Sequence record: DRR378314_128
Length of the DNA: 36,533 nucleotides
Direction: 5' to 3' (one strand)
Of this stretch, positions 2 through 18,844 are shown piece after piece (position 1 is the first letter of the stretch; the number at the start of each line of letters is the position of its first letter). The translations under genes and the position numbers were made by a program. The notes beneath the pieces were generated by a model. It was not told the origin of the DNA. It saw only the letters and a program-made list of their open reading frames with translations, and did not search any database.

Positions 2-2887
2 CAGGCGTGGGAATACGCCATGAACGCCCGCGGCGTGAAATGGGTTCTGGTGTCCAACTACATCGAACTGCGCCTCTACGGTTTTGGGGAAGGCACCTCG
101 GCGTATGAAGTCTTTCGCCTCGACAAGCTGACCGACCCGGATGAGTACGCCCGCTTTATGCTCCTGCTCTCGGCGGAAAATCTTCTGTCGGGTCGAACGC
201 TTGACCTGCTCAAGGAAAGCCGTCGCGAAGACAAGGACATCACAGACAAGCTGTACCAGGACTATAAGGACCTGCGGTTTAAACTGCTCCACGCCGTGCA
301 AGAGGCGGATAAGTCCATCGACGCGCTCGACGCGATTGCCCTTGCGCAGAAGATCCTCGACCGCGTGCTCTTCATCGCCTTTGCTGAAGACACCGGCCTT
401 CTGCCCGACAACACGCTCAGTGACGCGTTCTCGCACGTCGATCCGTACAACCCGCGCCCGGTTTGGGAGAATTTCAAGGGTCTCTTCCGCGCCATCGATG
501 CGGGCCGCAATGAGGTCAGGGATGCAGAAGGTAAGGTTCTGGTCCCAGCAATCCCGCGCTACAATGGCGGGCTGTTCCGCACGGACGAAACTATCGACGG
601 CCTCACCCTGCCAGACGCCATCTGCGAAGGCTTCAAGACGCTGGGCGAATATGACTTCGCCTCCGAAGTCTCTGTCACCGTTCTCGGCCACATCTTCGAA
701 CAATCCATCGCTGACGTAGAGCGCCTGCAAGCCATCGCGCGGGGCGAAGAGGAAGAGCCGGAAAAGACCAGCGGAACCAGTGGGCGGCGCAAACGCGACG
801 GGGTGGTCTACACGCCGGACTACATCGCGCGGTTCATTGTGGTCGAAACCCTTGGCGCGCACCTCAAGGAAGCCTTCGAAACCATCCTCCGCGATCACGC
901 CAAGAAGGGAGCGGACATCTCCAACTATGCCGCCATCCCGTGGCGCAGGAAATCGGCCGAGCTGGAAGCCTGGCGGGCCTACCGCGACCGGATCAAGACG
1001 CTGCGCATCGTCGATCCGGCGTGCGGCTCGGGCGTATTCCTCATCATGGCTTTCGACTTCCTCAAGGCCGAACTGTCTCGCGTGAATGACAAGATTGCCG
1101 AGCTGGAAGGCAAGGATCAGCATATCCAGGACCTTCTCGATCCGGATAGCGAAATCCTGTCGAACAACCTCTTCGGCGTTGATGTGAACGCGGAAAGCGT
1201 CGAGATAACCAAGCTGTCGCTTTGGATCAAGACAGCGCGGCGCGGCAAGGTGCTGGACAGCCTTTCGGGCAGTATCCGTGTGGGCGATAGCCTGATCGAG
1301 GACAGCAACTTCGCCTATCTCGATCATGCCTTCACCTGGGAAACAGCGTTCCCTGACGTCTTTGCCGAGGGCGGCTTTGACGTAGTGCTGGGCAACCCGC
1401 CCTATGTGCGCCAAGAGCTTATCTCAGACCTCAAGCCATATCTTCAAAGGCGCTTTGAAAGCTACCATGGTGTGGCCGACCTGTTTTGCTACTTCTACGA
1501 GCGGGGACTCCGTCTGCTAAAACCGGGCGGTCGTTTGGGCTACATTTCTTCGAACACCTTCTTCAAGACAGGTTCGGGCAAACCATTGCGTGAATACCTG
1601 TTGAAGGATGCGACGATTGAAGGCGCGGTCGATTTCGGTGACCTGCAGGTCTTTGAGGGTGTGACAACCTATCCCGCTATCCTTGTTCTGAAGAACCGGA
1701 CTGCCGCCAAGGACCATGAGTTGCGATTCTGGAAAGTTGACGCTCTGCCGGAAACAAACTTCATCGCTAGTTGGGAAGCGGCCCAGGGTCCTTACCCACA
1801 ATCAGCGCTTGAAGCCGGGTCTTGGGAGCTAGAAAATCCCGCTCTGCGCGCCTTGCGAGACAAGGTCAGGAATGGTCGCAAAACAATAAAAGAGGTTTAT
1901 GGATCGCCGCTCTATGGGATCAAAACGGGGCTGAATACAGCCTTCGTGATCGACACTGGTACCAAAGACCGCCTCTGTACCGAGGACCCCAATTCTGCCG
2001 AGCTGATTAAACCGTTCTTGGAAGGCAAAGACTTGAAGAGGTGGCGAGCCGAACCTCGCGATCTCTGGTTGATCTTCACAAGGCGAGGAACGGATATTGA
2101 AGCCTTTCCTGCGATCAAGGCCCACTTAGAAACTAAGCGGGACGCCCTTGAGCCAAAGCCGAAAGATTGGAAGCCACAGGACAGCAAAGACAAATGGCCG
2201 GGCCGTAAAGCAGGTAGCTACAAGTGGTTCGAAATTCAGGACACCGTGGATTATCACGAACAGTTCCCGAGGCCTAAGGTTCTATACCCTGAGTTTTGCG
2301 ATAAACCTCAATTCCAACTCAACGAGTCCCATTACTTCAACAACAAATGCTATTTTGTTCCCACATCAGACACTTGGCTTGCAGCCTACTTAAACTCTAG
2401 ACTCGGTTGGTTTGTGGTTACTGAACGGACTGTGCCCGTCCGTGGTGGCTTCCATCAAATGCACTCCCAGTTCATCGAACAGGTTGTGCTGCCGGATGTG
2501 TCTAATGCCGATCAGGACAAACTCGGAGAATTGGCCGCTGATTGTCAGCGCCTCGCGTCGAAACGCTTAAAGCTCCAAACCGCCCTCACCCGCCGCATTC
2601 CCGACCTCTGCCCGCCAGAGCGCGAGCCAAAGCTCAACACCAAGCTCAAGGAATGGTGGACCCTGTCAGACTTCGCCGCCTTCCGTGCTGAGGTGAAGAA
2701 GGCCTTCAAGGCCGATATCCCGCTTTCCGAACGCTCTGACTGGGAAGATTGGATCACCCGCGACCGCGCCGAAATCGCACGCCTCACCGCCGAAATCGCG
2801 CAAGCCGAAGCTAAGATCGACGGCATCGTCTACGACCTCTTCGACCTCACCCCCGACGAAATCGCCCTTCTGGAAAGCGTGGTGTGA
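2..2887 (+). CDS. Type IIG (Eco57I-like) restriction-modification fusion, N6-adenine methyltransferase with TaqI-C-like TRD; 5' truncated by the window edge
   Basis: The frame is open from base 2 (QAWEYAMNARGVKWVLVSN..LRLY, tail of the nuclease domain). It contains motif X (GVVYTP), motif I (IVDPACGSG), motif IV (FDVVLGNPPY) and a C-terminal TRD (GIKTG, PFLEGKDLKRW, WFEIQD). Confidence 0.92.
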   Translation, partial: QAWEYAMNARGVKWVLVSNYIELRLYGFGEGTSAYEVFRLDKLTDPDEYARFMLLLSAENLLSGRTLDLLKESRREDKDITDKLYQDYKDLRFKLLHAVQEADKSIDALDAIALAQKILDRVLFIAFAEDTGLLPDNTLSDAFSHVDPYNPRPVWENFKGLFRAIDAGRNEVRDAEGKVLVPAIPRYNGGLFRTDETIDGLTLPDAICEGFKTLGEYDFASEVSVTVLGHIFEQSIADVERLQAIARGEEEEPEKTSGTSGRRKRDGVVYTPDYIARFIVVETLGAHLKEAFETILRDHAKKGADISNYAAIPWRRKSAELEAWRAYRDRIKTLRIVDPACGSGVFLIMAFDFLKAELSRVNDKIAELEGKDQHIQDLLDPDSEILSNNLFGVDVNAESVEITKLSLWIKTARRGKVLDSLSGSIRVGDSLIEDSNFAYLDHAFTWETAFPDVFAEGGFDVVLGNPPYVRQELISDLKPYLQRRFESYHGVADLFCYFYERGLRLLKPGGRLGYISSNTFFKTGSGKPLREYLLKDATIEGAVDFGDLQVFEGVTTYPAILVLKNRTAAKDHELRFWKVDALPETNFIASWEAAQGPYPQSALEAGSWELENPALRALRDKVRNGRKTIKEVYGSPLYGIKTGLNTAFVIDTGTKDRLCTEDPNSAELIKPFLEGKDLKRWRAEPRDLWLIFTRRGTDIEAFPAIKAHLETKRDALEPKPKDWKPQDSKDKWPGRKAGSYKWFEIQDTVDYHEQFPRPKVLYPEFCDKPQFQLNESHYFNNKCYFVPTSDTWLAAYLNSRLGWFVVTERTVPVRGGFHQMHSQFIEQVVLPDVSNADQDKLGELAADCQRLASKRLKLQTALTRRIPDLCPPEREPKLNTKLKEWWTLSDFAAFRAEVKKAFKADIPLSERSDWEDWITRDRAEIARLTAEIAQAEAKIDGIVYDLFDLTPDEIALLESVV

Positions 2888-2888
2888 C

Positions 2889-3827
2889 ATGAGTGCGGGG
2901 CTGCCCAATGGGCGCAACATGTGGATACGCGCCTTTTATGGCTTCGATCCTGAACTGGACGGCTATGTCGGATGGACGAATGAAAGTGGTCAGACACGTG
3001 CCCTACGTGAACTGAACGACGGCGATCTGATGATGATTTACGGCGCAGCTTCAGGCAACACCAAGAAGTACATGCGGTCGCATATCCTCGGGTTTGTCGA
3101 GATCGAGGCACGCCCGATACGCGATCACGAAAAGGCGTCTAAAGCTTCGCTTGAGGCCAAAAGAGAAAGAGGCAACGGCGAAAAGTGGACCTATGGCCTT
3201 CCCGTGCGTCGCGCATGGCGTGCGCTCGACAAGATGTCGATCGAGCGCATCGCGCCCGACACTTACGACAAGGACGCGGGCCAAGGCATCGGCGTCTGGG
3301 GGCGCGCGCTGACGCCTGCAGAGATCGACACAGCGCTGAAGATCAAGGTGACCGAGGTCAACGTATTCAGCGAAGAGCCAGTCGGGGATAGCGGTCTGAC
3401 CGACACACCGTTTAAGGAAGAGTTCTTTCCGTCAAAGGCGTTTCCGGGGTCGAGTGGCCAGCGTACCTCCACCTACACAGATGGCGAGACGTTCCTTTAC
3501 CTCGCGAAATTCGATGGCGACGGTGCTGCGCTATTGGGGCGCGCCCAGTCTTTTGGCAGTAAGTCGGTCGCACTGAAGATCGGCGTCTCGAACGATCCGG
3601 CGTCGCGGTCTGACCAGTTAAACGCGGGAATTCCACCCGCTGCGAAGGGGCGGTGGCGGATCGAACTTCAGGCCCCGTTTGCTGATCGGAAAGCGGCTGA
3701 AGCGGCTGAGCAATTGTTCAAGGATAAATCCGGCAAGCTGAAAAGTCTGGGCGGGGAGTTCTTCTGGGGCGATAGTATGGACGCCGTCCTGTTGTTTTCA
3801 TCGATCCCAGGTGTGTCGCGGTTTTGA
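2889..3827 (+). CDS. Putative nuclease: N-terminal PUA/EVE-like domain plus C-terminal GIY-YIG (T5orf172/MUG113-like) domain
   Basis: C-terminal FLYL...LKIGVSNDPASRSDQLN...AEAAE...GGEFF matches the T5orf172-type GIY-YIG pattern. N-terminal W..GW..L.DGDLMMIY...ILGFVEI...LTPAE resembles the EVE/PUA pattern (by eye). Starts 1 bp after the RM stop. Confidence 0.7.
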   Translation: MSAGLPNGRNMWIRAFYGFDPELDGYVGWTNESGQTRALRELNDGDLMMIYGAASGNTKKYMRSHILGFVEIEARPIRDHEKASKASLEAKRERGNGEKWTYGLPVRRAWRALDKMSIERIAPDTYDKDAGQGIGVWGRALTPAEIDTALKIKVTEVNVFSEEPVGDSGLTDTPFKEEFFPSKAFPGSSGQRTSTYTDGETFLYLAKFDGDGAALLGRAQSFGSKSVALKIGVSNDPASRSDQLNAGIPPAAKGRWRIELQAPFADRKAAEAAEQLFKDKSGKLKSLGGEFFWGDSMDAVLLFSSIPGVSRF

Positions 3828-3840
3828 ATGAGGGATTTTG

Positions 3841-4746
3841 ATGAGACGATTTGAAATTGATGCAGAGACGCTCCCAGACCTTCCCGGAATGATGCTTGTC
3901 ACGGTCGAGGCGTTGAAAGACCTCGGCGGGTCCGCGACGATCCAGGAGCTCGATGAGAAGGTGATCGAGCTGGAAGGCGTGACAGAGGCCGAACAGGCTT
4001 TCACCATGCCGCGCGATGAGAATCGGACGCGGGTGAATTACTACTTGGCCTGGGCGCGAACCTATCTGAAGCGCGGAGATGCACTGAACAACTCCAAACG
4101 CGGGGTCTGGGCTTTGACGGAGACAGGGTCCGCGATCTCGGACCTTAGCGCGACACAAGCGATCTATGATCAGGTGACGCAGGAAGAGCGTGAGCGCGCG
4201 CGCCTGAAGCGTCTGGCCGCCAAGAAGGCTGATTCGGACAGGGGCGAAGAGATCGAGGTCATGGCTGACGATGGCCCGACTGATGAGGAAGACTGGAAAT
4301 CGGCACTGCTGGCTGTGTTGGGCAAGATGACCCCAGACGGGTTCGAACGCCTCGCGCAGCGACTCATGCGTGAGGCGGGTTTCACGAAAGTCGAAGTGCG
4401 CGGCAAGTCGGGCGACGGCGGGATCGACGGTGTCGGCGTGCTACGCGTGAACCTCGTGTCGTTCCAGGTCTACTTTCAGTGCAAGCGCTGGAAGGGCAGC
4501 GTTGGCTCCAAGGAAATCCGAGACTTTCGGGGAGCCCTGCAGGGCCGCGCTGACAAAGGGCTTTTCATCACCACTGGGCATTTCACTAGCCAAGCCTCGG
4601 ATGAAGCCACGCGCGACGGCGCGATTGCGATTGATCTCATCGACGGTGATCGGCTCTGCGAGTTGTTGAAGGAAAATCGGTTGGGTGTAGCAACTGAGAT
4701 GATTGAGAGGATTCAAATTCACCCAGATTGGTTTGAAGGAATTTAA
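3841..4746 (+). CDS. mrr: Mrr-family modification-dependent (type IV) restriction endonuclease
   Basis: Mrr_N wHTH (LAWARTYLKR...SKRGVWALT) and Mrr_cat (FERL...SGDGGIDG...FQCKRW...IRDFRGAL...GLFITT...IDLIDG). GAGGG RBS before the ATG at 3841. Confidence 0.93.
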   Translation: MRRFEIDAETLPDLPGMMLVTVEALKDLGGSATIQELDEKVIELEGVTEAEQAFTMPRDENRTRVNYYLAWARTYLKRGDALNNSKRGVWALTETGSAISDLSATQAIYDQVTQEERERARLKRLAAKKADSDRGEEIEVMADDGPTDEEDWKSALLAVLGKMTPDGFERLAQRLMREAGFTKVEVRGKSGDGGIDGVGVLRVNLVSFQVYFQCKRWKGSVGSKEIRDFRGALQGRADKGLFITTGHFTSQASDEATRDGAIAIDLIDGDRLCELLKENRLGVATEMIERIQIHPDWFEGI

Positions 4747-4980
4747 TGCGATTGATGCAGCGGCTTGAGATCATCCGAGCTTGGGCGCGAGATCATCGGC
4801 GTTTATGGCTCAGATTATTTGAATCTCAAAGTCGCCACACGCTCACAATAATTGCGATTGGCGCAGATTATCAGAGACAAGCACAACTCACCGAGACTGA
4901 GCATATCATATCGGGCTTGTGGTCCGAGAACGACTGTTCGTACACTCTGTGCTATCCCTTTGCCGTCCGGGAGAAACAAA

Positions 4981-5382
4981 ATGGCCGACCAGTTCTACCA
5001 GCCTCAACTCGTCGAATGCACCGCAGGATGTGGTCAAGTTGTCTCGGTAGATGCCAAATCATGCCCGAACTGCGGCGATCCTGACCCGGCAAGAATTGGT
5101 GGAATGACGGAAGCAGAGATAGCTTGGCAGAACACTCCTGCAGTTCAGGAAAAGCTAAGAGAAGATCGAGAACGCCGGGAAGCTGAATGGCGACGGTCCG
5201 AGGAAAAGAGGCTTTCCGACAAGAGATTCAATCGATGGTTTCAGATAGTTTGTGGCGGTGTTCTGGCAGGCTGTATCATTACCATTTATCGAGCTGAAAG
5301 CTTGGCCAGCGTTGCTATTTCATTGGTCGTCGGTTTTTTTATGATTCAAGGACTGCTAAACTCGAGTGATAACGACGACTAG
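4981..5382 (+). CDS. Hypothetical protein: zinc ribbon, charged coiled coil and two C-terminal transmembrane helices
   Basis: GGAGA RBS before the ATG at 4981. CTAGC...CPNC motif, E/R-rich helix, and two hydrophobic segments (WFQIVCGGVLAGCIITIY; LASVAISLVVGFFMIQGLL). Confidence 0.7.
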   Translation: MADQFYQPQLVECTAGCGQVVSVDAKSCPNCGDPDPARIGGMTEAEIAWQNTPAVQEKLREDRERREAEWRRSEEKRLSDKRFNRWFQIVCGGVLAGCIITIYRAESLASVAISLVVGFFMIQGLLNSSDNDD

Positions 5383-6969: not shown

Positions 6970-8544
6970 TTATAGATGGAAGCCGTATTCACGGTCTTGC
7001 TCAAGGCGCGGCTCATTCAGCTCTCGTTCAGCTGATTTTCGGCGGCTCTCGCTAGTCTCAAACTGGTCTGCAAGTTCTCTTCCAGCGTCGTGTAGCTCTG
7101 CTCTTCGGTCAGTAAGTCGGCCAATGTGGTGACTGACACGAGATGCGATTTCATGAGCAGCTCCACGCACTGTGCTAAGCCATTCAGTCTGGTTTCGATC
7201 CCAGTCGTCGAGCGTTCTTCCAAGCTGCGCAATTCCTTGGCTGAGGTCTCGCAAGCCGCCACCAACCGCTCGACGCACACGAACAAATCTCGCTCCAAGG
7301 CCGTCAGAGGTTGATCCATCTAGTTCGGCTCCACTCTGATGCATGAAACCAATCGGCTCGCCACCGAACAGGTGCGCATGCTTGAAGTCTCTGGCGGCAA
7401 GATCAAATACGTCGCTTGCTCGTGAAGCACCGTCTGAATACCCAACCTCTCTAAATGCGTCGTGGTCGCAATCGTTGAGAGTTTCCAACTCCACAGAAAG
7501 GTCAGCCCCAATGTTGCTAAGATCAGTACCAGACAGACAGTCGCCATCGCCCAGGGTGAAATCCGTAGCAATCGTTTGATTGTGTCGATGTGACTCTGCC
7601 AGGTCGTCCCGTTCCAATCCAGAAACATGCGGGTATCTGATTCGATTGTATTCCGCGCGTGTGTCACACACCCCTGAATATCGTTCCTGAAGCTCTGCAA
7701 TTGAGTTTCCATCAAGGCGGCGTGTTCCTTGCGGATCTCGTCCAGATCCGCGTTCAATTTCTCGCTCAGCCGAGTCGGCTTGCCAGTCGTCACGGAATAT
7801 TTCTCCTTTCAATCGCCAGCGTTCGCCGGTCTCGGGGTCTTTGGCGGTGATGTAATTCTTGCTGGCGCGGGGGATGTCGAAACCAACATCCGTCAAGGCA
7901 TCGATCATACTGGCACGGTCATTGATGGTGCCAATGCTGATCTGGTCGAGGACCCAGCTGTGCAGCTCTTCTCTGCCTTGCGCACGTGTCGGGGCCTCCA
8001 TGAAGGCCTGCACTTCTTGCGCCCGATCCAGATCCATCGGATCGGCCCAGCCGTGTGCCTTGTTCATCAGGTCACGTAGGCTGTCGTAGGCTGATTGATA
8101 GCCTGGAGGCGCGATGTTGAGGCTCTTGCCTGTGGTCAGCTCCAATCGTGGCGTGCAGAAGTGCAATTCAATGCGATCTTCGTGGCTGTGGCGGACCCAG
8201 AGCACATCATATTGCTCGCTATCCAATCCGGCAAAGGCCAGCTTCTCGAAGGCCAGCATGACTTCGGCTTGCTGAGCTTCTGTGGGCGCATCTTCTTCGG
8301 CAAAACTGATGACGCCTGAGCGGTAGGTCCATTGGTTATGGCTCGCGTCGATCAGTGCTTCGGTGCGACAGGGATCACCACGGAGAACTTCGGGTAGCGG
8401 ATCGCGCTTGACCATCACCGGGCGACCATCGGCATCACGGATCAAATCGCGATTGGCGTCATAGGCCAGCACCTCACGCGCAACAAGATAGCCGACCGGT
8501 CCAGCGCCCGGGCCCTTACCGTTGGGAAAAAACTTGATCAGCAT
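6970..8544 (-). CDS. mobA: Relaxase of the ColE1 MbeA/MOB-P5-like type
   Basis: MLIKFF..GKG.GAGPVGYL (catalytic Tyr motif), YRSGVISF.E, FEKLAFAGL..EQYDVLWVRH.....ELHF..P.LEL.TGK.L. Start overlaps the mobC stop. Confidence 0.9.
   Translation of the reverse strand: MLIKFFPNGKGPGAGPVGYLVAREVLAYDANRDLIRDADGRPVMVKRDPLPEVLRGDPCRTEALIDASHNQWTYRSGVISFAEEDAPTEAQQAEVMLAFEKLAFAGLDSEQYDVLWVRHSHEDRIELHFCTPRLELTTGKSLNIAPPGYQSAYDSLRDLMNKAHGWADPMDLDRAQEVQAFMEAPTRAQGREELHSWVLDQISIGTINDRASMIDALTDVGFDIPRASKNYITAKDPETGERWRLKGEIFRDDWQADSAEREIERGSGRDPQGTRRLDGNSIAELQERYSGVCDTRAEYNRIRYPHVSGLERDDLAESHRHNQTIATDFTLGDGDCLSGTDLSNIGADLSVELETLNDCDHDAFREVGYSDGASRASDVFDLAARDFKHAHLFGGEPIGFMHQSGAELDGSTSDGLGARFVRVRRAVGGGLRDLSQGIAQLGRTLDDWDRNQTEWLSTVRGAAHEIASRVSHHIGRLTDRRAELHDAGRELADQFETSESRRKSAERELNEPRLEQDREYGFHL
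7017..7319 (-). CDS. MbeD/MobD-like accessory mobilization protein nested in the relaxase gene (alternative frame)
   Basis: The ATG directly follows the stop of the 7320..7793 ORF and has a GGAG RBS. LTALERDL..CVERL coiled-coil start; same relative position as ColE1 mbeD. Confidence 0.6.
   Translation of the reverse strand: MDQPLTALERDLFVCVERLVAACETSAKELRSLEERSTTGIETRLNGLAQCVELLMKSHLVSVTTLADLLTEEQSYTTLEENLQTSLRLARAAENQLNES
7320..7793 (-). CDS. MbeB/MobB-like membrane-anchored mobilization protein nested in the relaxase gene (alternative frame)
   Basis: Strong AAGGAG RBS before the GTG at 7793. Coiled coil followed by one TM helix (WAMATVCLVLILATLGLTFLW); same relative position as ColE1 mbeB. 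Confidence 0.68.
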   Translation of the reverse strand: MTTGKPTRLSEKLNADLDEIRKEHAALMETQLQSFRNDIQGCVTHARNTIESDTRMFLDWNGTTWQSHIDTIKRLLRISPWAMATVCLVLILATLGLTFLWSWKLSTIATTTHLERLGIQTVLHEQATYLILPPETSSMRTCSVASRLVSCIRVEPN

Positions 8545-8873
8545 TGCCGTGCCTCATCGAGGAGCTGGGAAAGTTGGCGCTCGATCACCACGAGCTGGCG
8601 GGCCAAGGCCAGCGTCTCCAAGTCAATCCGACCAACCAGCAGCGCCCGGTTCACGAACCGCGCAATCTGGTTGAGATTTCCGCCGATGCGTCCGACTGCA
8701 AGAACCAACGCTGGATCAATGCGTGGTGCGGGCTTGCGACGACGAGCTTCGATCAGGCCAAGCGCCTCGCGTAAGAGCGTCGCGGCGGGGACGCCAGCGG
8801 TCTCGGCTTTGGCGCGAAGCTCAGCCTTCTCAGCAGCTGTGCACCGAAATACGAAGGTCTCGGTCAGCGGCAT
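8538..8873 (-). CDS. mobC: MobC relaxosome accessory protein (ribbon-helix-helix)
   Basis: FVFRCT.AEKAEL..KA..AG....LLRE RHH, plus the signature L..IGGNLNQIAR. Start taken as the ATG at 8873, not the longer ORF call. Confidence 0.9.
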   Translation of the reverse strand: MPLTETFVFRCTAAEKAELRAKAETAGVPAATLLREALGLIEARRRKPAPRIDPALVLAVGRIGGNLNQIARFVNRALLVGRIDLETLALARQLVVIERQLSQLLDEARQC

Positions 8874-8879
8874 TTTGGC

Positions 8880-8970
8880 GTGGGGCTTGCCCCCGCCGGG
8901 GGGGTTCGAAGGGGAGGCTTGCCACCCCTCGCAAGGTTCCGTGTCAGCAGCACCAGTGTATGACATGGGT
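8880..8970. promoter_or_regulatory. Putative origin of transfer (oriT) / mob promoter region
   Basis: Lies directly upstream of mobC. GC hairpin 8907-8931, GGCTTGCC present twice, TGTCA..TGACA inverted repeat (8942-8965) enclosing AGTGTAT, reminiscent of the ColE1 oriT core. Confidence 0.5.
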
Positions 8971-9054
8971 CGCCTTGCTCCTTGCTCAACTCGCATGGCG
9001 TACCTCCTGCTCAGATGGCTCGAAAACGGTCCAGCCCTCCTCGATGAGCCAATG

Positions 9055-9717
9055 CTACCAAGCGGGCCAGTTGTCTTTGTTAGTTGGCGGGAACCGGTCT
9101 GGAAGCCGGTATCCGCTAGAGCCGTTCTCCCAGACGACTGGCAGGGCTCTGTCGATCCAGGTTCCAAACATGCGTTCTGTGAACACTTCCCATTGGCGAC
9201 AACCGAATGATGATCGCGGAACGAATACAGCCTGTGGTCCACCCCCGCGCGGCGAGGCGGATGGCTCTCCACTCGTTAGATCCGGCTCAAGCGCGGTCTT
9301 TTGTTCTTTGGATTGTTCGATCTCTATATAGGAAAGATCACCTGTGAGCCTCTTTTCACCCACGGTTGACCCCTTTTCAGTATTCGAAAGGCTCATTGGT
9401 GCGCCCTTTTTCTTGGGACGAAATGGGATGATTTTGGAGGGCGCGCGAAGGTCATATTTGGTGCAGTTTCCGGCGCCACGTCCTTCGGTTCGAAAGAGCC
9501 AACCGAACTCAACAAGCTGTCGAAGGCATCGCTTGATGGTTGCTAATGACATACCCGCCAAAAACTCGTCCAATGTGTTCAGCGATGGATTGAGCTGGCC
9601 AGTTTTGTCGTTGGCGAACTGAACGGAAAGCGCCGATGCGACCGCTTTTGTAGATGAATTGAGGTCGGCACATTGCAGAACAGCTTTAAGCCATTCAAAA
9701 CGGTTAAGCTTAGTCAT
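9055..9717 (-). CDS. Winged helix-turn-helix protein, probable replication initiator of the element
   Basis: GGAGG RBS before the ATG at 9717. L..STKAVA..L...N...GQLNPS..TL....MS..TIKRCL..L...GWL pattern of HTH_36-type initiators; lies upstream of mob. Confidence 0.72.
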   Translation of the reverse strand: MTKLNRFEWLKAVLQCADLNSSTKAVASALSVQFANDKTGQLNPSLNTLDEFLAGMSLATIKRCLRQLVEFGWLFRTEGRGAGNCTKYDLRAPSKIIPFRPKKKGAPMSLSNTEKGSTVGEKRLTGDLSYIEIEQSKEQKTALEPDLTSGEPSASPRGGGPQAVFVPRSSFGCRQWEVFTERMFGTWIDRALPVVWENGSSGYRLPDRFPPTNKDNWPAW

Positions 9718-9732
9718 GTGCACCTCCCGCGA

Positions 9733-9825: not shown

Positions 9826-10368
9826 GAGTCGCACCGATTTTTTGGTTCGCCAGGCACTTAATTTCTCTAGTAGTTTCAATGCGCCATTTTTGGCGGTTCG
9901 TCAGTTTAAGTCGATGATTTCTTTGCGCAGTTCCACGCCTGCACGGCTCACCACTTTTTCCAAATGGAAGATGACACGAAGTTCGTCTCTTTTGACAAGA
10001 GTTTGTCGCTTTTATGGGAAACTCTTGGGCTTTGCATCATGCGTCTCATGGGTGCACTGTTAAGCTCGGTGCCGACATCTGGATTCAAATACAGAGCGCC
10101 TATGATGTAGCGCATGCTTCTTGCGATGTGGATGTGTCAGGTATTTCGACATTGAAGACTGCCAAGTGAATGCGGCCGGGCGTGTTCCCAAGCACATGTC
10201 AAGCGGAGGGTTGATAAAACCGCAGCTCCACGCCCCCATACTCAGTAGAAAAACCGCCTTGAAGGACCTGTCACCTGTCTGACAATCAGGCTATGCCTAG
10301 GGTTGTATTTAATAATTGGCTCGCACCAGCTCATTGTACGGTGCGGGCATAAAATTTGGCAGGTTGCG

Positions 10369-13300
10369 ATGAATAGTGGGTTCCATGAGATTCTAGGTTA
10401 CTGGCGCGCGTCGTTGGCGGATGGTGCATTGGGGCGGGGTCGCTTCAGGCAGCGGGATCGGAAGGATTTCATCGAACTGTCGAAAGACACGCTGCGCGAT
10501 GGAGTGCTGCCTAAGAAGCAGGTTCGCAATGTTTTTGAAGGACAGAAGCCGGATACCAAGGTAGTAGACGTACAAATCTGGCCGATGGTCATGGCTCGGA
10601 GAACTTCCCACGGTGCGACTATATCCAATGGTTCTCCAGAAATCGTCGCACCTGTAGTTACAGAGGCGACCGTCGATAGAGACGGTAACATTCGCCCATC
10701 CCGAAACGTCATTGCGAGAGACGTGCTGAAGCCACTCCCCAACGATGTTTTTTCGCTCGGCAAGGTTGAAGATTTCGACACCTTTCTTTCAGCATCGCCC
10801 TTCTCGCCTGACGAAAACTCCCCTGTTTGGGACCAATACCTAAAACACTGTCGTGCAATGCTCGATGCCGTTTCTCCCGGGTGGCCATCTGACGATGACA
10901 ATTATCTCTCTGCCGGCGTGGGATTTATGGAGGTTTCCGGTGAGGCTGCCGCAGCTATTGCGCAAGTTATCAGCCTCTATGACACGCTGCTTGGTGAAAA
11001 TCACAAAGCGCCGCTGTTAGAAAATCTGGCCGGATCGCCCTCAACCAAAAAGGAGCTTTCTCCTCAGACGGAAGCGAACTTCATAAATCGACTGGGACAT
11101 GCCAGCGATGAATTTCCGCTCGCAGATCATCAACGTCAGGTTCTTTCATATCTCTCAACCGGAAAACCCAGCGATGTGCTTGCCGTCAACGGGCCTCCTG
11201 GAACAGGCAAGACGACAATGCTCCTGTCGGCCATTGCAGATGCGTGGGTTCGCGCAGCGCTGGAAGAAAGTGCTCCACCGGTCATCGTCGCGGCGTCCAC
11301 CAATAACCAGGCTGTAACAAACATTATCGACGCGTTCGGCAAGGACTTCTCCGAAGGCGAAGGCCCATTCGCGGGTCGTTGGTTGCCTGGCCTCAAAAGC
11401 TACGGGTTGTTTCTTCCAGCAAAATCAAAAGAGGCCGAGGCTGCTCGCCGGTATCAAACTGAGCGGTACTTCAATGAACTAGAAAGCCATGACTATGTTC
11501 CCCGCGCCAGAGACGCTTTTCTGGAGGCAGGGAAATCGGCATTTCCGGGCCTTGAAAATCCAGATGTGAAAGAGATCGTATCTTCCTTACACAAGCGGAT
11601 TGCTGAAGAGGTTGCAAAACTGTCCGATGCGGACAAGTCACGGAAATGGGTTGAGGAGGCAACATCGAAAGTTGTTAACCTATTGGGCGACGATGCCGAG
11701 GCAACACTGCTGCAGGTGGAAAAAGCAATGCAGGATGGCGCAGCAGAACTTGAGCGCCACAAGACTTGGGAATCCGGGTGGACCAAACATCAGGCTGATG
11801 AATCTGTCTTTTTAGTAATGTTCAACTTTCTTCCATCTGTGGCTCAAAAAAGAGTGATGAAAGGGCGTGTCTCCCTGGAAACCATCGGCTGCACGCTGGA
11901 TTTCTCCGATGTCAGTTCGGTTGAAAGTTTGGGGAATAGCCTGCGAAATGCGGTTCGAATTGCACAGGAGGCTGCTAAAACCACCAAGTCCAGATATGAG
12001 GCAGCACGGTCAGCGTTAGAAAATCTGAATCAGGCGAAGAGAGCATGGGCGCGCGCAACGGAAAATCTTGGTGCGTCGGCCGTTCCAGCAACTGATGCAT
12101 TGGACGTCGATAGATTTGCCGATTGCCACGCCCGTTTTCTTCTTTTCCGATTGGCTTGCCACTATTGGGAGGGGCGGTGGCTTCTGGAAATGGAAGATAG
12201 CTTAGACGATATCGTGGCGTCGCATCGGAAAACCGGGCGGAAAACAATCGAACCACGCTGGCACCGTCGTATGATGCTGACACCCTGTGCTGTTTCCACG
12301 TTTGCGAGCTTGCCAGGCAAAATGAGCTTTGGTCTGAAGTCTGGCGGTGAATGGGGCACAGGCTATTTGTTCGACTTCATCGACTTGCTGATTGTTGACG
12401 AAGCCGGGCAAGTCTTGCCGGAGGTTGCGGCGCCCTCGTTTGCATTAGCGAAGTGCGCCTTGGTCATTGGGGACACCCAGCAGATTGAACCAATCTCATC
12501 TGTGTCTAAAGCAGTCGATATTGGCAATCTGCAAAGTGCCGGTTTTCTAAAAGAGACCTATGCCGAGGCCGATTTGGCGACACTGTCAGATACGGGCATG
12601 CGTAGTGTTGACGGTAGTGTAATGCGCCTCGCCCAGCAAGCGTGCGTCTATGAGCCTTACCCGGAATTAGAGCGAGGGCTTTACCTGTTCGAGCATCGGC
12701 GTTGCTATGACGAAATCATCAATTTCAGCAACAAACTCTGCTACAAAGGATCGCTCAAACCGATGCGAGGCAGTGCTTCCGAGGGTCGCGCTGTGCCGTC
12801 GATGGGGTACCTACATATTGATGGTATGGCTTTGAGTTTTGGCGGCAGCCGCGCAAATGCGACTGAAGCTGCAACAATTGCAGACTGGCTCGCGGAAAAT
12901 CGGCAGGATATTGAAGACCAATACAACAAAAAACTGGAAGATATAGTCGGTGTCGTCACCCCCTTCGGACGACAGGTGCAAGAAATCAAACGGGCTTGTG
13001 CCGAACGAGGCATTGACGCGAAAATGACCGTTGGCACGGTTCACTCGCTTCAAGGGGCTGAGCGACCAATCATCCTATTTTCACCGGTTTATTCCAAACA
13101 TGCCGACGGGCATTTCATCGACATGTCACCAAGTATGCTGAATGTGACCGTATCACGTGCAAAAGACAGCTTCCTTGTCTTCGGTGACATGGATGTATTT
13201 TCGTCGGCTGCGAAGGGTACGCCCAGATCGGTCTTGGCTGAATGTCTGTTCTCTCAGAGCGATGGCGTGCTTGAGTTTACTGCGCAGCCGCGCTCCGATC

Positions 13301-13785
13301 TTCAGGATTCAAGTCACCCGCTTTCGACATTGAGAGACGCAGAAGAACACGATCGGTTCTTGAAAAATGCCCTGTCCACAGCCCGTGAAATGACCATCGT
13401 CAGCCCGTGGATCATTGCCTCAACAATGAAACGTGCTGGGTTACTGGATGCTTTCCAAGGTGCGGTGGCGCGGGGTGCAGAAATCGATGTCATCGCAGAT
13501 CCTCTGTTGAACCAGTTGAAGTACGATGATGGCGTAACACAGCTAGAAGCAGCAACATCTGCACTGCAAGATGTAGGTGTACGAGTCCACGAAGTGCGTC
13601 AGCTGCACAGCAAGATTGTCATAGTGGATGTCAATTGGCTTTGCATCGGCTCCTACAATTGGCTGAGCGCTGACCGGAAGGGCCGATATGCGCGCCACGA
13701 AACGTCGATCGTGTACAATGGTTCGCACCTTCAAAGCGAGATTGACGTCATCAAGCAAAGCCTAGGTGCTCGCGAAAAGCGCTGA
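10369..13785 (+). CDS. SF1 (DNA2/NAM7/Upf1-like) helicase fused to a C-terminal PLD nuclease; Mokosh type II (MkoC)/YjhR-like defence protein
   Basis: Walker A NGPPGTGKTT, ASTNNQAVTNI, IVDEAGQ, IGDTQQIEPI, EHRRC, GVVTPF, GTVHSLQGAER, LNVTVSRAK. C-terminal single HKD motif LHSKIVIVD...GSYNW. Start taken as the ATG at 10369. Confidence 0.85.
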   Translation: MNSGFHEILGYWRASLADGALGRGRFRQRDRKDFIELSKDTLRDGVLPKKQVRNVFEGQKPDTKVVDVQIWPMVMARRTSHGATISNGSPEIVAPVVTEATVDRDGNIRPSRNVIARDVLKPLPNDVFSLGKVEDFDTFLSASPFSPDENSPVWDQYLKHCRAMLDAVSPGWPSDDDNYLSAGVGFMEVSGEAAAAIAQVISLYDTLLGENHKAPLLENLAGSPSTKKELSPQTEANFINRLGHASDEFPLADHQRQVLSYLSTGKPSDVLAVNGPPGTGKTTMLLSAIADAWVRAALEESAPPVIVAASTNNQAVTNIIDAFGKDFSEGEGPFAGRWLPGLKSYGLFLPAKSKEAEAARRYQTERYFNELESHDYVPRARDAFLEAGKSAFPGLENPDVKEIVSSLHKRIAEEVAKLSDADKSRKWVEEATSKVVNLLGDDAEATLLQVEKAMQDGAAELERHKTWESGWTKHQADESVFLVMFNFLPSVAQKRVMKGRVSLETIGCTLDFSDVSSVESLGNSLRNAVRIAQEAAKTTKSRYEAARSALENLNQAKRAWARATENLGASAVPATDALDVDRFADCHARFLLFRLACHYWEGRWLLEMEDSLDDIVASHRKTGRKTIEPRWHRRMMLTPCAVSTFASLPGKMSFGLKSGGEWGTGYLFDFIDLLIVDEAGQVLPEVAAPSFALAKCALVIGDTQQIEPISSVSKAVDIGNLQSAGFLKETYAEADLATLSDTGMRSVDGSVMRLAQQACVYEPYPELERGLYLFEHRRCYDEIINFSNKLCYKGSLKPMRGSASEGRAVPSMGYLHIDGMALSFGGSRANATEAATIADWLAENRQDIEDQYNKKLEDIVGVVTPFGRQVQEIKRACAERGIDAKMTVGTVHSLQGAERPIILFSPVYSKHADGHFIDMSPSMLNVTVSRAKDSFLVFGDMDVFSSAAKGTPRSVLAECLFSQSDGVLEFTAQPRSDLQDSSHPLSTLRDAEEHDRFLKNALSTAREMTIVSPWIIASTMKRAGLLDAFQGAVARGAEIDVIADPLLNQLKYDDGVTQLEAATSALQDVGVRVHEVRQLHSKIVIVDVNWLCIGSYNWLSADRKGRYARHETSIVYNGSHLQSEIDVIKQSLGAREKR

Positions 13786-16156: not shown

Positions 16157-17146
16157 TCAGGCGAGGCTGACAACTGTTCCCTGTTTCAGCGAAGTATCCG
16201 CCGCGTCTGCCAGAATCTGTGCGCGCAATCCGTCGATGATTCCAGGCGAAAGGGGCTCAGACCCGCTCATCGCTGTGATGAAATGAGCCATCTCGGCGCG
16301 ATAGGCGCTCTCATAGCGCTCCAGGAAGAAATGCTGGGCCGGGGCTTTGCGGAATCCCAGCGGGGTCGCAATTTCGACCGTATTTTCCAACATGTTTTCC
16401 GCGCGCAACAGACCTTTCTCACCATGCACCTCGATGCGTTGGTCATAGCCATAGCTGGCGCGACGCGAATTTGAGATCTGGCAAATCTTGCCGCTGGCTG
16501 TCGTCAAGGTAACGGCTGCTGTATCGACATCTCCGGCTTTGCCAATCTCGGGATCGACGAGCGATGACCCAACAGCATATACGCCGACCGGTTCTTCGCC
16601 CAGCAGAAAGCGAGCCATGTCGAGATCGTGGATCATCATATCGCGGAACAACCCGCCTGAACTTTTGATATAGCTGATCGGTGGTGGTGAGGGGTCGCGG
16701 GACAGGATGGTGACGATCTCGACGTTTCCGATTTCGCCGTTGGTTATGCGGGATTGGATGTTAGCAAAACTTGGGTCAAAGCGGCGGTTAAAGGCGGTCA
16801 TAAAGGGCACGCCTGTGGCCTCGACCACTTTGATACAGTCGCGGATACGGTCGGCAGACATATCGACCGGTTTTTCGCAGAAGATCGCTTTGCCTGCGTT
16901 CGCAGCTTGGTGAATCAGGTCGTAATGGGTGTCGGTCGGGGTTCCGATGACCACCGCATCGACATCCGTGCTTTCGATCAGGTCTTCCGCCGGCAGCACG
17001 TTTGCGCCGGTTTTGTCAGCCAGTATCTGGGCGGGTTCGGCAAATGCGTCGGCCACAGCCGTGACCCGCGCGCCATCAATCTGCCCGATCGAGCGCGCAT
17101 GCACCTGCCCGATACGCCCGCAACCAAGAAGCCCGATATTCAGCAT
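16157..17146 (-). CDS. iolG: myo-Inositol 2-dehydrogenase
   Basis: GCGRIG, CEKP, FNRRFDP, SRDP.PPP..Y...SGG.FRDMMIHD, YGYDQRIEVHG, FFLERY. Confidence 0.95.
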   Translation of the reverse strand: MLNIGLLGCGRIGQVHARSIGQIDGARVTAVADAFAEPAQILADKTGANVLPAEDLIESTDVDAVVIGTPTDTHYDLIHQAANAGKAIFCEKPVDMSADRIRDCIKVVEATGVPFMTAFNRRFDPSFANIQSRITNGEIGNVEIVTILSRDPSPPPISYIKSSGGLFRDMMIHDLDMARFLLGEEPVGVYAVGSSLVDPEIGKAGDVDTAAVTLTTASGKICQISNSRRASYGYDQRIEVHGEKGLLRAENMLENTVEIATPLGFRKAPAQHFFLERYESAYRAEMAHFITAMSGSEPLSPGIIDGLRAQILADAADTSLKQGTVVSLA

Positions 17147-17147
17147 G

Positions 17148-17978
17148 TCATGCCCCTTTGAATGCCTGCAGAACCCGGCGTGTCGCCTCGACCACCGGTT
17201 CGTGTGTCTCTTTCAGGATTTGAACGCGGTCGAACCTGTCTGGGTCGGTGTTCACAGCCGTGCGCAGGGCGTTCCCGAAGGCCATCCGCAGCTCGGTCCC
17301 GATGTTGAACTTGCAGACCTTAGACCCGCGCGCCAGCGCTGTGCGCTGCGCAACAGGGACGCCTGATCCACCGTGAATGACCAGTGGAACTTCGGTCACG
17401 GCTTCGATGGCACGAATGCGGGCCTTGTCCAGACCGCCTTCTTTGTTCTGTTGCAAATGGACGTTGCCGACCGAGATTGCCATTGCGTCTACGCCAGTCT
17501 CACGGGCGAACCGTGCTGCCTCATCCGGGTCGGTTCCGTCTGAATCTTCTCCGCCTGAATAGCCCACAAAGCCAATCTCTCCTTCGCAGGAGACCCCGGC
17601 GGCATGTGCCATCTCGGCTATCGCCGCAGTTTCTTCAATGTTCTGGGCCAATGGTTTGCGCGAGCCGTCGAACATGACTGAGGTGAAGCCACTATCGATA
17701 GCGACGCGGCACTCTTCATGGGTGTAACCGTGATCCAGATGCGCGACGACGGGAACACTCGCTCCTTCGGCCAGATGGCGGAACATCTTACCTAAGATCG
17801 GCAGCGGCGTATGTTCGCGACAGGACGGCCCGGCTTGCAGGATAATGGGCACATCTTCGGCCTCGGCTGCGGCCACATAGGCGCGCATGTCTTCCCAACC
17901 CAGCGTTACCAGACCCGCCACGGCGTAGCTGTCACGTAGCGCCGGTTGCAGCACATCCGATAATGTCACAAGGCTCAT
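17148..17978 (-). CDS. Class II fructose-bisphosphate aldolase family; probable 6-phospho-5-dehydro-2-deoxy-D-gluconate aldolase (IolJ role)
   Basis: AHLDHG, FTSVMFDGS, EGEIG, GNVH, LVIHGGSG, KFNIGTEL; located inside the iol operon. Confidence 0.9.
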   Translation of the reverse strand: MSLVTLSDVLQPALRDSYAVAGLVTLGWEDMRAYVAAAEAEDVPIILQAGPSCREHTPLPILGKMFRHLAEGASVPVVAHLDHGYTHEECRVAIDSGFTSVMFDGSRKPLAQNIEETAAIAEMAHAAGVSCEGEIGFVGYSGGEDSDGTDPDEAARFARETGVDAMAISVGNVHLQQNKEGGLDKARIRAIEAVTEVPLVIHGGSGVPVAQRTALARGSKVCKFNIGTELRMAFGNALRTAVNTDPDRFDRVQILKETHEPVVEATRRVLQAFKGA

Positions 17979-18832
17979 TTGAACTTAGCCACCATGTCCA
18001 TAATACCTGGGATAGTATGCAATTGGTCCGCATGGGTCGGCTGAAAATACTGCTTCAGCGAGCGTTGGCTGAGCCCGCCCAAGATCGTGAAATAATACAT
18101 TTCATAGCCCGGCAAAACAACGCATGGGTGGTACCCTTTGTCGATCATGATCGTTGAGCCATCCATGATGTGATAGGCATCGCCCGGCTTGTTATCTTCG
18201 CGCTGCAGCATCTGGACGCCTGAGCCATAGTTGGGCCGGAAGCGGAAGTTATAAGTCTCGTCATGGCGGGTCTCGATCATCTCGCCATCGTCACTGTGGC
18301 GATCCGTGTCGTGCTTGTGGCTGGGAAAACCGGACCAGCCGCCCTGACCCACGGTATAAAGCTCTGACACCAGCAGGCGGCCCACCTTGTCGTGGTGGTT
18401 TGCGCCAAGTATATGTTTGATCTTGCGATGGGTTTTGGTGTCGTCTGAACCATATTGCACAAGATCCAGCTCTGGCACGCGCACGTCGAAAGGTTCGAGC
18501 ACGCGGTCGTATTTTGCCCCGGCAATGAAAGTCTCAGTCTCGTCTGTCACGCAGGTAATGCGGACGTTGGCGCCGACAGGTACATAGACGCCTTCGGGCT
18601 CGCCATCCCAAACGTCGATGGTGCGGTTGCCCAAATTGGAATAGACCGCGCCGTCCACGTCGACATCGACGGTGCCAGTGGCGGGTACGATGCAGGTCTC
18701 ATATCCGGGCACGGCGTATTCGAATACCTCACCCTTTTTCAGTTTGACGATATTGAAATAGTTCAGCGGCACCAGATCACTGTCGGCATCGACAATGGGT
18801 TTGTTCTGGTTGTCATGGGGCGCAATATGCAT
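17975..18832 (-). CDS. iolB: 5-deoxy-glucuronate isomerase
   Basis: KduI/IolB cupin: LLVSE, G.WS.FP.HKHD, E.Y.FRF.P..G, GYHP....PGY.MYY. Confidence 0.92.
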   Translation of the reverse strand: MHIAPHDNQNKPIVDADSDLVPLNYFNIVKLKKGEVFEYAVPGYETCIVPATGTVDVDVDGAVYSNLGNRTIDVWDGEPEGVYVPVGANVRITCVTDETETFIAGAKYDRVLEPFDVRVPELDLVQYGSDDTKTHRKIKHILGANHHDKVGRLLVSELYTVGQGGWSGFPSHKHDTDRHSDDGEMIETRHDETYNFRFRPNYGSGVQMLQREDNKPGDAYHIMDGSTIMIDKGYHPCVVLPGYEMYYFTILGGLSQRSLKQYFQPTHADQLHTIPGIMDMVAKFK

Positions 18833-18844
18833 CTGCGTCTCCTT

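Follow-up and report, generated by a model that had tools for sequence, protein, structure and literature searches.

Results

A conserved two-domain gene between two restriction genes

Sequence record DRR378314_128 contains a stretch of 36,533 nucleotides, here called the window, in which an open reading frame (ORF) at 2889..3827 on the plus strand lies between a type IIG restriction–modification (RM) gene and an mrr-type type IV restriction gene. The ORF starts with ATG and encodes 312 amino acids (aa). An initial annotation, made from the letters of the sequence, described the product as a PUA/EVE-like reader fused to a T5orf172-type GIY-YIG nuclease, a candidate modification-dependent restriction enzyme. 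Our analysis leads us to predict, with a probability of about 0.6, that the protein is a dimeric type IV modification-dependent endonuclease. The N-terminal half contains the strings DGDLMMIY (aa 44-51) and ILGFVEI (aa 66-72), and the C-terminal half the motifs TFLYLAKF (aa 201-208), LKIGVSNDPASRSDQLN (aa 229-245), AEAAEQLFK (aa 270-278) and GGEFFWG (aa 288-294). The ORF, these motifs and the AlphaFold2 (AF2) model agree with the two-domain organization first proposed, and the PADLOC and Pfam matches of the flanking genes agree with its placement between a type IIG RM gene and mrr.

A word-indexed search recovers 274 homologues at E<=1e-3 (90% clusters). Among the 120 listed, nearly all are 311-318 aa long, share 54-92% identity with the window protein and come from alphaproteobacteria; they carry names such as 'GIY-YIG nuclease family protein', 'EVE domain-containing protein', 'T5orf172 domain-containing protein' and 'hypothetical protein'. 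A profile search with an alignment of 41 family members (A1, mean column identity 67%) matches 577 representatives (50% clusters) at E<=1e-3, and for 103 of these the match reaches E<=1e-30. The homologues are so numerous and so well conserved that the ORF is not a chance reading frame. The carriers are marine and soil alphaproteobacteria, including marine roseobacter-group and rhizobial bacteria. A search of the PDB with the single protein sequence yields chance-level rows alone (best E 0.59). The AF2 model built on A1 has a mean predicted local distance difference test (pLDDT) score of 81.4 and consists of two compact domains, aa 9-165 and aa 200-312.

Some relatives (P0129, P0132, P0144, P0179, P0192, P0220 and P0245) have N-terminal extensions of 80-330 aa, which match no Pfam family and for which cluster look-ups return 'hypothetical protein' only (Phenylobacterium, Hoeflea). 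At one locus (L041:10001-10498 and downstream) the homologue is split into parts of 165 aa and 106 aa by an intervening ORF of 449 aa, probably as the result of an insertion.

The N-terminal domain resembles readers of modified bases

VIA-align, an exhaustive structural comparison of the AF2 model with 48,161 PDB representatives, matches the N-terminal domain to PH1033 (1wmm; Z 9.3, 131 residues aligned, root-mean-square deviation (rmsd) 3.3), a Zymomonas ASCH protein (5guq; Z 8.9), the YTH-like N-terminal domain of Staphylothermus McrB (6n0s; Z 8.2), the EVE-HNH enzyme VcaM4I (6yex; Z 8.2, 139 aligned, rmsd 4.3, identity 10%) and YTHDC1 (6syz; Z 8.1). Among the best 25 rows, 22 cover this domain, and all 22 are EVE, YTH, ASCH, McrB-N, VcaM4I or DrmA N-terminal chains; several of the matched reader structures were solved with 5-methylcytosine (5mC) or N6-methyladenine (m6A, 6mA) ligands. 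Foldseek ranks 2hd9 first (E 1.1e-3), followed by 1wmm, 2p5d and then YTHDF2, all with probability 1.00 and E from 1e-3 to 3e-3. The model, in which pLDDT is 83-91 across most of aa 11-130, has the PUA-like pseudo-barrel fold. The EVE, ASCH and YTH matches lie within one Z unit of each other, so the sub-clade cannot be told apart. Residues invariant in the 41 aligned sequences include Y17, F19, E22, Y26, W29, Y51, F69, W100, W110 and Y126.

The C-terminal domain has a GIY-YIG nuclease fold

The C-terminal domain (aa 193-312) of the model has the GIY-YIG alpha/beta fold. Its closest structural matches are At-HIGLE (7wme; VIA-align Z 7.0, 88 aligned, rmsd 2.9) and Slx1 (Z 6.5 with 6seh and 6.4 with 7cq2), followed by CMoRE/PD-T4-3 (9u75; Z 4.1), EF2693 (1ywl; Z 4.1), I-TevI (1ln0; Z 4.0) and UvrC (1ycz; Z 3.4). 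The A1 profile also matches the GIY-YIG protein 1ywl (E 0.052), with G232, R240 and E274 falling on motif positions. The key residues are Y204 (the GIY tyrosine), K230-I231-G232 (the YIG motif), R240, N245, E274 and E290; across the 41 sequences Y204, G232, E274 and E290 never vary, and R240 is kept in at least 90%.

At E<=0.01, Pfam assigns T5orf172 to 24 of the 41 members, MUG113 to 7 and GIY-YIG to 4. The best T5orf172 match among the relatives has E 2.1e-5, P0239 scores 22.5 bits and P0129 20.0 bits, and 4 of the 120 listed homologues carry a precomputed PF10544 assignment. The window protein itself scores 12.3 bits (PF10544, E 0.26), below the 20-bit cut-off. The family is a divergent T5orf172/MUG113-like branch; the GIY-YIG fold of the original assignment holds, and its T5orf172 label is not reached by the score of the window protein.

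A conserved linker, exchangeable modules and a predicted dimer

The inter-domain linker begins with a variable hinge (aa 166-174, mean column identity 0.31) and continues with the motif F..F.PS.AFPGS.G.R....DG (aa 175-199), whose conservation (mean column identity 0.76) matches that of the folded domains. The AF2 model gives pLDDT below 50 for aa 181-197. This motif may be a regulatory or DNA-contacting element.

The metagenomic relative P0239 (327 aa) has only aa 175-307, the linker motif plus nuclease, in common with the family (hhalign against A1, probability 99.7%). Its N-terminal domain (aa 3-155) matches the PADLOC model UzuA (E 1.4e-26) and is unrelated to that of the window protein; a literature search on Uzume/UzuA found no paper on the defence system. 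The linker motif thus appears to be inherited jointly with the nuclease module. The converse exchange is seen at five loci, where proteins of 554-586 aa combine the same N-terminal domain (~43% identity over aa 10-180) with a different C-terminal module of 374 aa. When modelled, the N-terminal domain of such a variant matches 1wmm (Z 9.0) and VcaM4I (Z 8.5), and Pfam on the variants returns weak EVE matches only. The 374-aa module has 779 homologues, in which it may stand alone (~380 aa), be part of a form of ~490 aa or be fused to an EVE-like domain (~555 aa). Taken together, these exchanges suggest that the reader and nuclease halves are separable modules.

The nature of the 374-aa module is less clear. 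The AF2 model of the variant has an overall pLDDT of 68.8, which drops under 50 over long stretches of residues 488-540. A C-terminal D-R-I-D...N-L-Q...C...N...K stretch, picked out by eye, is at this low pLDDT no more than a candidate HNH nuclease, and ESM Atlas neighbours with HNH families (score 0.85) are a lead only. A match of the middle part to an HhH-GPD glycosylase (3n0u, Z 5.0) is under the trust level for a helical domain. The module recalls the inactive EndoIII sensors of END nucleases, as presented in the accessible text of a preprint, a tentative likeness (bioRxiv 10.1101/2025.03.31.646159). The stand-alone ~380-aa form adjoins both a DUF6998 gene and the GIY-YIG form.

Homodimer prediction for the window protein gives a score of 0.37, compared to 0.00 for the best of three controls. 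Proteins solved as single chains do not score this high (0 of 23), and most of those solved as pairs of one chain do (21 of 30). The score may partly reflect the predictor's memory of solved related GIY-YIG assemblies. The runs agree in at least 43% of contacts, with a partner pLDDT of at least 72. The predicted interface is symmetric, lies within the GIY-YIG domain (aa 210-218, 228-230, 243-256 and 286-293) and includes the family-invariant GIPPAA and SLGGEFF. The prediction supports pairing of the nuclease domains. A GIY-YIG domain has one active site, and a double-strand cut therefore needs two such domains.

The gene is coupled to restriction–modification operons

In the window, the junction between the type IIG RM gene and the 2889 gene reads TGA-C-ATG (2885-2891), with one base between stop and ATG, which suggests that the two are translationally coupled. 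A consensus scan finds no plus-strand promoter-like or terminator-like site between the type IIG RM gene, the 2889 gene and mrr, and the three appear to form a single transcription unit. In one RNA-library run 7% of the sampled words were present, and the three short contigs that matched are no sign of transcription by themselves: one covers the junction of the first two genes (2738-2964) with 21 differences and comes from a relative, and another lies inside mrr (4060-4291).

A scan of one genome per species gave 51 related loci, 50 of them alphaproteobacterial by their record titles. Neighbours were scored as script-called ORFs, in clusters named by Pfam, at 48 places (47 loci plus the window). 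A same-strand RM gene lies within three ORFs upstream at 31 of the 48 places, and four further loci (L019, L020, L022 and L050) all have hsd genes upstream, so that the total is 35 of 52; the loci are related and these counts are not independent events. No RM gene is found in the three ORFs downstream at any of the 48 places. Among ORFs more than six genes away at the same loci, 1 of 269 is RM-like (Fisher p 5.5e-30). The upstream systems are type I hsdR-hsdM-hsdS (22), type IIG (10) and Eco57I-type methylase or ResIII genes (3). Some unclassified loci carry other genes upstream: a UvrD helicase together with an N6_N4 methylase, a gene of GmrSD-like or of ResIII type, or helicase-nuclease genes. 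This variety of upstream systems argues for repeated juxtaposition. Between the upstream stop codon and the start of the homologue, spacings of -4, -1 or +1 are frequent. The homologues are probably co-expressed with RM operons, in which they come last or second-last.

Besides the window, 12 of the 47 scored related loci have an Mrr homologue downstream, which is at +1 at 11 loci and at +3 at the remaining one. Two of the 12 are distant copies, set in a type I context. Within the closest clade, the 2889-gene homologue (80-96% identity) and mrr (88-99%) stay paired, and the upstream enzyme, compared with the type IIG protein of the window, has 78-82% identity, only 20-24%, or is replaced by a two-gene system. 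The initial annotation had rested its defence context on the window; the related loci support that context more strongly than it supposed. Searched by tblastn, the window protein has no match in 50,697 phage records and matches 4 plasmid records.

Other genes recur in these operons. A DUF6998 gene (155-186 aa) lies between hsdS and the homologue at L015:6445-6915 and in the same slot at L013, L014, L016, L024, L036, L045 and L050; a representative matches its Pfam family with E 8.2e-47 and, weakly, the PADLOC model of a methyl-directed type II enzyme (E 0.0022). Between hsdM and hsdS, a gene for a 359-aa NucS_C-like nuclease (PADLOC PDC-S02, E 1.8e-42) is found at L044:7187-8266 and in the same slot at L020, L036 and L047.

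Neighbouring genes in the window

The features of the locus are collected in Table 1. The type IIG protein matches PADLOC REase_MTase_IIG (E 1.1e-130) and the Pfam families Eco57I (E 8.1e-45), MmeI_Mtase and TaqI_C. Profile positions 124-1063 of 1066 match from residue 2, so about 120 N-terminal residues of this protein lie outside the window. The likely start of mrr is the ATG at 3841, which is preceded by a GAGGGA ribosome-binding site. The small zinc-ribbon protein encoded next has no family above threshold in PADLOC or Pfam.

A second defence system in the window is the Mokosh protein MkoC. G+C content drops to 46-49% across 5-7 kb of the window. A 1.4-kb part of the mobilisation region is 90% identical to a Ruegeria plasmid, and since the mobilisation genes adjoin the defence genes, the island appears to lie on or beside a mobilisable element. 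The run of sugar and inositol catabolism-type genes further along is ordinary housekeeping DNA flanking the island.

Table 1 Features of the window and of the variant loci
Feature	Position	Strand	Basis
Type IIG RM gene, Eco57I/MmeI-like N6-adenine methylase, NPPY motif	20..2887	+	PADLOC, Pfam
Whole 2889 gene, 312 aa: EVE-like reader, linker, GIY-YIG nuclease (predicted)	2889..3827	+	ORF, homologues, AF2 model
PUA-like (EVE/ASCH/YTH-like) domain, ~aa 9-165	2913..3383	+	Structural comparison of AF2 model
Inter-domain linker, aa 166-199	3384..3485	+	pLDDT, column identity, hhalign
Linker motif, aa 175-199	3411..3485	+	Column identity 0.76
GIY-YIG domain, T5orf172/MUG113 type, aa 200-312 plus stop codon	3486..3827	+	Fold, profile, motif residues
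mrr-type type IV restriction gene	3838..4746	+	Mrr_cat E 5e-33, Mrr_N E 2.5e-15, PADLOC mREase_IV E 7.7e-27
176-aa protein, zinc-ribbon motif and hydrophobic C-terminal stretch	4852..5382	+	Directly after mrr
Abi_2 / HEPN-like protein, 257 aa	5587..6360	-	PADLOC PD-T4-5 E 4.5e-17, AbiD E 3e-6
MobA/VirD2-type relaxase, NikA-like protein, HTH_36 protein	6970..9723	-	Beside defence genes
MkoC (Mokosh), 1160 aa, helicase (AAA_11/AAA_12) and PLD	10303..13785	+	PADLOC full length, E 0, 1270 bits
Sugar/inositol catabolism-type run: GFO/IDH/MocA oxidoreductase, class II aldolase, KduI/IolB, PfkB kinase, PhyH, thiamine pyrophosphate (TPP) enzyme	16157..22526	-	
554-586-aa variants	L044:9977-11653, L046:9703-11463, L047:8662-10341, L048:9983-11647, L049:9977-11665		

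Discussion

A predicted reader-nuclease of the type IV class

The 2889 gene is predicted to encode a putative sensor and a nuclease in one chain, among defence genes, as in type IV enzymes. This architecture and this context agree with a type IV restriction enzyme, one of a class that had been predicted before. We propose that the EVE-like PUA-fold domain would bind DNA and probe a flipped non-canonical base in a pocket formed by the family-invariant aromatic residues. The variable hinge and the conserved linker motif would couple this sensor to the C-terminal GIY-YIG nuclease, whose domains would pair so that two single active sites make a double-strand break near the recognised base. The locus as a whole could then act against two kinds of DNA, with the RM enzyme attacking what is unmodified and the 2889-gene enzyme and Mrr attacking modified phage DNA.

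EVE fusions to GIY-YIG and PLD nucleases are numerous and have been catalogued computationally as putative type IV enzymes (PMC7641849). The EVE plus GIY-YIG class in that catalogue, as far as its accessible text goes, has the same domain pairing and predicted role as the window protein, and the novelty of the pairing that the initial annotation implied does not stand. The catalogued fusions form a class defined by architecture and not one characterised enzyme; the operon-terminal slot behind RM genes and the pairing with mrr, features of the window family, are not described in the accessible text (PMC7641849). In the available part of another study, the PUA-type fusions screened were limited to those with HNH or PD-(D/E)XK partners (PMC6765204).

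EVE-type readers of modified bases, such as VcaM4I and THYN1, take up a flipped base in a conserved pocket of hydrophobic or aromatic residues. Among the closest characterised parallels to the window protein is VcaM4I. As described in the accessible text, VcaM4I, an EVE-HNH enzyme of 309 aa compared to 312 for the window protein, likewise has an N-terminal EVE-type reader, a linker and a C-terminal nuclease; it flips 5mC and 5-hydroxymethylcytosine (5hmC) into a pocket formed by P24, W82 and Y130, and it dimerises through its nuclease domains, as the window protein is predicted to do (PMC7897488). The nuclease of VcaM4I is HNH, whereas that of the window protein is GIY-YIG. The linkers also differ: in VcaM4I, according to the same text, it is a helix that blocks the active site, and in the window protein a conserved motif predicted to be unstructured (PMC7897488). 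VcaM4I targets 5mC and 5hmC, whereas most carriers of the window family encode C5 methylases.

Two kinds of characterised GIY-YIG enzyme sense modified bases. CMoRE/PD-T4-3 (PDB 9U75) is, according to its accessible text, a type IV enzyme specific for 5hmC and glucosyl-5hmC which, like the window protein, has a GIY-YIG nuclease and a modification-sensing domain joined by a flexible linker in a single chain, and which acts as an oligomer (PMC12923530). The domain order is reversed in CMoRE as described there, with the nuclease N-terminal and the sensor C-terminal, and the nuclease domains match weakly (Z 4.1). CMoRE has a GIYxY-YIG motif, whereas the window protein has F-L-Y-L-A-K-F at Y204, without a second tyrosine two residues on. 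The window protein does not group with CMoRE/PD-T4-3. The winged-helix (wH)-GIY-YIG enzymes Ahi29725I and Apa233I are 6mA-dependent and share with the window protein an N-terminal sensor and a C-terminal GIY-YIG domain; in the accessible description they cut away from the sensed base, and their winged helix reads G6mATC without base flipping, in contrast to the PUA-fold sensor predicted here (PMC11037411). Searches of full-text literature, with most subscription journals outside their scope, found no characterised EVE plus GIY-YIG or PUA-GIY-YIG enzyme, in agreement with the initial annotation.

The genomic setting also has a parallel. Type I RM (hsd) genes cluster with type IV genes such as mrr, for example in the immigration control region of E. 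coli K-12; there, as in the window family, a type I RM operon has type IV genes as its immediate neighbours. Unlike in the K-12 region, the window-family gene is co-oriented with the RM genes, often overlaps the RM stop codon and recurs with mrr behind unrelated RM systems. Our analysis contributes four observations: the coupled position at the end of diverse RM operons, the repeated association with mrr, the natural exchange of modules within one slot and the lack of C5-methylase avoidance.

Several observations weigh against a modification-dependent enzyme. PADLOC has no model for the window protein, returning no family for it (any PD-T4-3 model included) and none for the relative L016. The Pfam EVE family (PF01878) matches the window protein at 17.1 bits (E 0.0055, aa 32-100), under the 23-bit cut-off; it reaches E<=0.01 in 13 of the 41 relatives (best 3.3e-4), and the 22.7 bits of the relative L056 are still below the cut-off. 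A comparison by hhalign of A1 with four canonical alphaproteobacterial EVE proteins, a set from carrier genomes (A4) that matches 1zce at E 3.5e-66, gives a probability of 0.08% and E 0.63 with shallow profiles (effective number of sequences (Neff) 2.3 and 1.8), and just the GD..(I/F)Y and (L/V)G(F/I)VE(I/V) strands align. With EVE sequence membership below threshold, the reader assignment rests on the predicted fold; the PUA-like part of the PUA/EVE-like reader first proposed is upheld by structure (Z 9.3 and 8.2), and its EVE part falls short by sequence score. In the nuclease domain the tyrosine of the YIG motif is a lysine (K230), a K-I-G form which we take to be usual in T5orf172/MUG113-type domains. 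There is also a precedent for a different function in an endonuclease of a phage satellite, reportedly a T5orf172 protein. The accessible text on this phage satellite describes a domesticated endonuclease that tunes gene expression (PMC8096241).

The methylases of the carriers bear on the same question and on the base that might be read. A C5 DNA methyltransferase (PF00145) is encoded in 35 of 43 carrier genomes of related loci. For comparison, one related family has such an enzyme in 81 of its 151 sampled genomes (odds ratio 3.8, p 0.0013), the two groups being unmatched in taxonomy and assembly quality. Carriers do not avoid enzymes that make 5mC, and context-free dependence on 5mC is therefore unlikely. 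The 2889 gene also lies directly beside N6-adenine methylases of changing specificity, and alphaproteobacteria generally carry CcrM, so a context-free reader of 6mA is unlikely too. Recognition may instead depend on context, or be directed at hypermodified bases of phages. Our best guess for the target is a phage hypermodification, for example 5hmC or one of its derivatives, or else some other bulky base; plain 5mC and plain 6mA look unlikely. The list of targets originally offered (5mC, hmC, 6mA or hypermodified bases) would thereby lose its two plain methylated bases, and hmC or its derivatives stay on it.

Alternative functions

The protein could be a defence or repair nuclease whose N-terminal domain is not a modification reader, recognising instead DNA structure, damaged bases or single-stranded DNA, or serving as an auto-inhibitory or oligomerisation module, with another infection cue as the activator. 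The structure-specific HIGLE and Slx1 are the top matches of the nuclease domain (Z 7.0 and 6.5), the EVE sequence signals are under threshold, the carriers show no C5-methylase avoidance, and the conserved low-pLDDT linker could be regulatory. We nevertheless regard this as unlikely: all 22 rows that cover the N-terminal domain among the best 25 are reader-type PUA folds, several with 5mC or m6A, and the domain is conserved, with many invariant aromatic residues. It is also reused with another C-terminal module in the same genomic slot, and Mrr, another type IV enzyme, lies downstream in the window and at 12 of 47 related loci.

The regular position of the gene raises the question of whether it is an accessory effector tied to the RM system, either a backup nuclease for when a phage blocks RM or a reader that directs or limits the RM complex. 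Its operon-terminal position is strict (RM genes upstream at 35 of 52 places, downstream at 0 of 48), its start codon overlaps or abuts the stop codon of the upstream RM gene, and a variant that keeps the N-terminal domain but has another C-terminal module is found in this slot too, behind hsdS. The accessible text of the EVE catalogue predicts that a type I RM system accompanied by a standalone EVE protein likewise targets modified DNA (PMC7641849). The upstream partners are heterogeneous, however: besides type I systems there are type IIG enzymes of two or more unrelated lineages, pairs of a methylase and ResIII, and a helicase with an N6_N4 methylase. Such a mixture hardly fits a specific protein-protein partnership. 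At 17 of 52 places no model-recognised RM gene lies within three ORFs upstream, and the protein has its own sensor and its own nuclease. An accessory role is, in our judgement, decidedly unlikely.

We consider it highly improbable that the protein is an RNA-directed toxin acting in abortive infection, in which the EVE-like domain would bind modified RNA (e.g. tRNA) and the GIY-YIG domain would cut RNA. EVE and PUA domains have long been seen as RNA-binding, according to the available text of PMC6765204, and many structural matches of the N-terminal domain are YTH domains solved with m6A RNA. No antitoxin-like small gene stands consistently beside the homologues, and the recurring neighbours are DNA restriction systems. 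GIY-YIG enzymes are, to our knowledge, DNA nucleases.

Least probable of all is a selfish homing endonuclease, or a domesticated, catalytically dead DNA-binding regulator like known phage T5orf172 genes: T5orf172 signals in 24 of 41 members, the mobilisation genes nearby (6970..9723) and the one interrupted copy (L041) would suit it, but the tyrosine, arginine and glutamate of the motifs are invariant or nearly so, only 4 plasmid records match, and we reject the homing reading on the absence of the gene from 50,697 phage records and on its conserved operon slot behind RM genes, where it is not inserted in other genes.

Implications

Within the modification-dependent endonuclease that we favour, a more specific proposal can be made, which is tentative and on balance doubtful. 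The 2889 gene and mrr may form a portable two-gene type IV cassette at the 3' end of unrelated adenine-methylating RM operons, in which a divergent EVE-like reader would recognise a phage hypermodification other than 5mC and 6mA, such as 5hmC derivatives, modified thymidines or 7-deazaguanines, and the linker motif would act as a switch that releases the nuclease dimer. If this were true, the specificity would be one not yet described for a GIY-YIG restriction enzyme.

Should the protein prove modification-dependent, it would be the first characterised EVE plus GIY-YIG reader-nuclease. It would also contribute a restriction activity from marine roseobacter-group and rhizobial bacteria, in which phage defence has seen little experimental work. 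Since the hosts mostly carry C5 and N6 methylases, the specificity could be for a bulkier phage base, which would make the enzyme a reagent for mapping such bases. The regular slot behind RM systems, together with the swapping of sensor and nuclease, would then be a natural example of how RM operons are extended to modified DNA.

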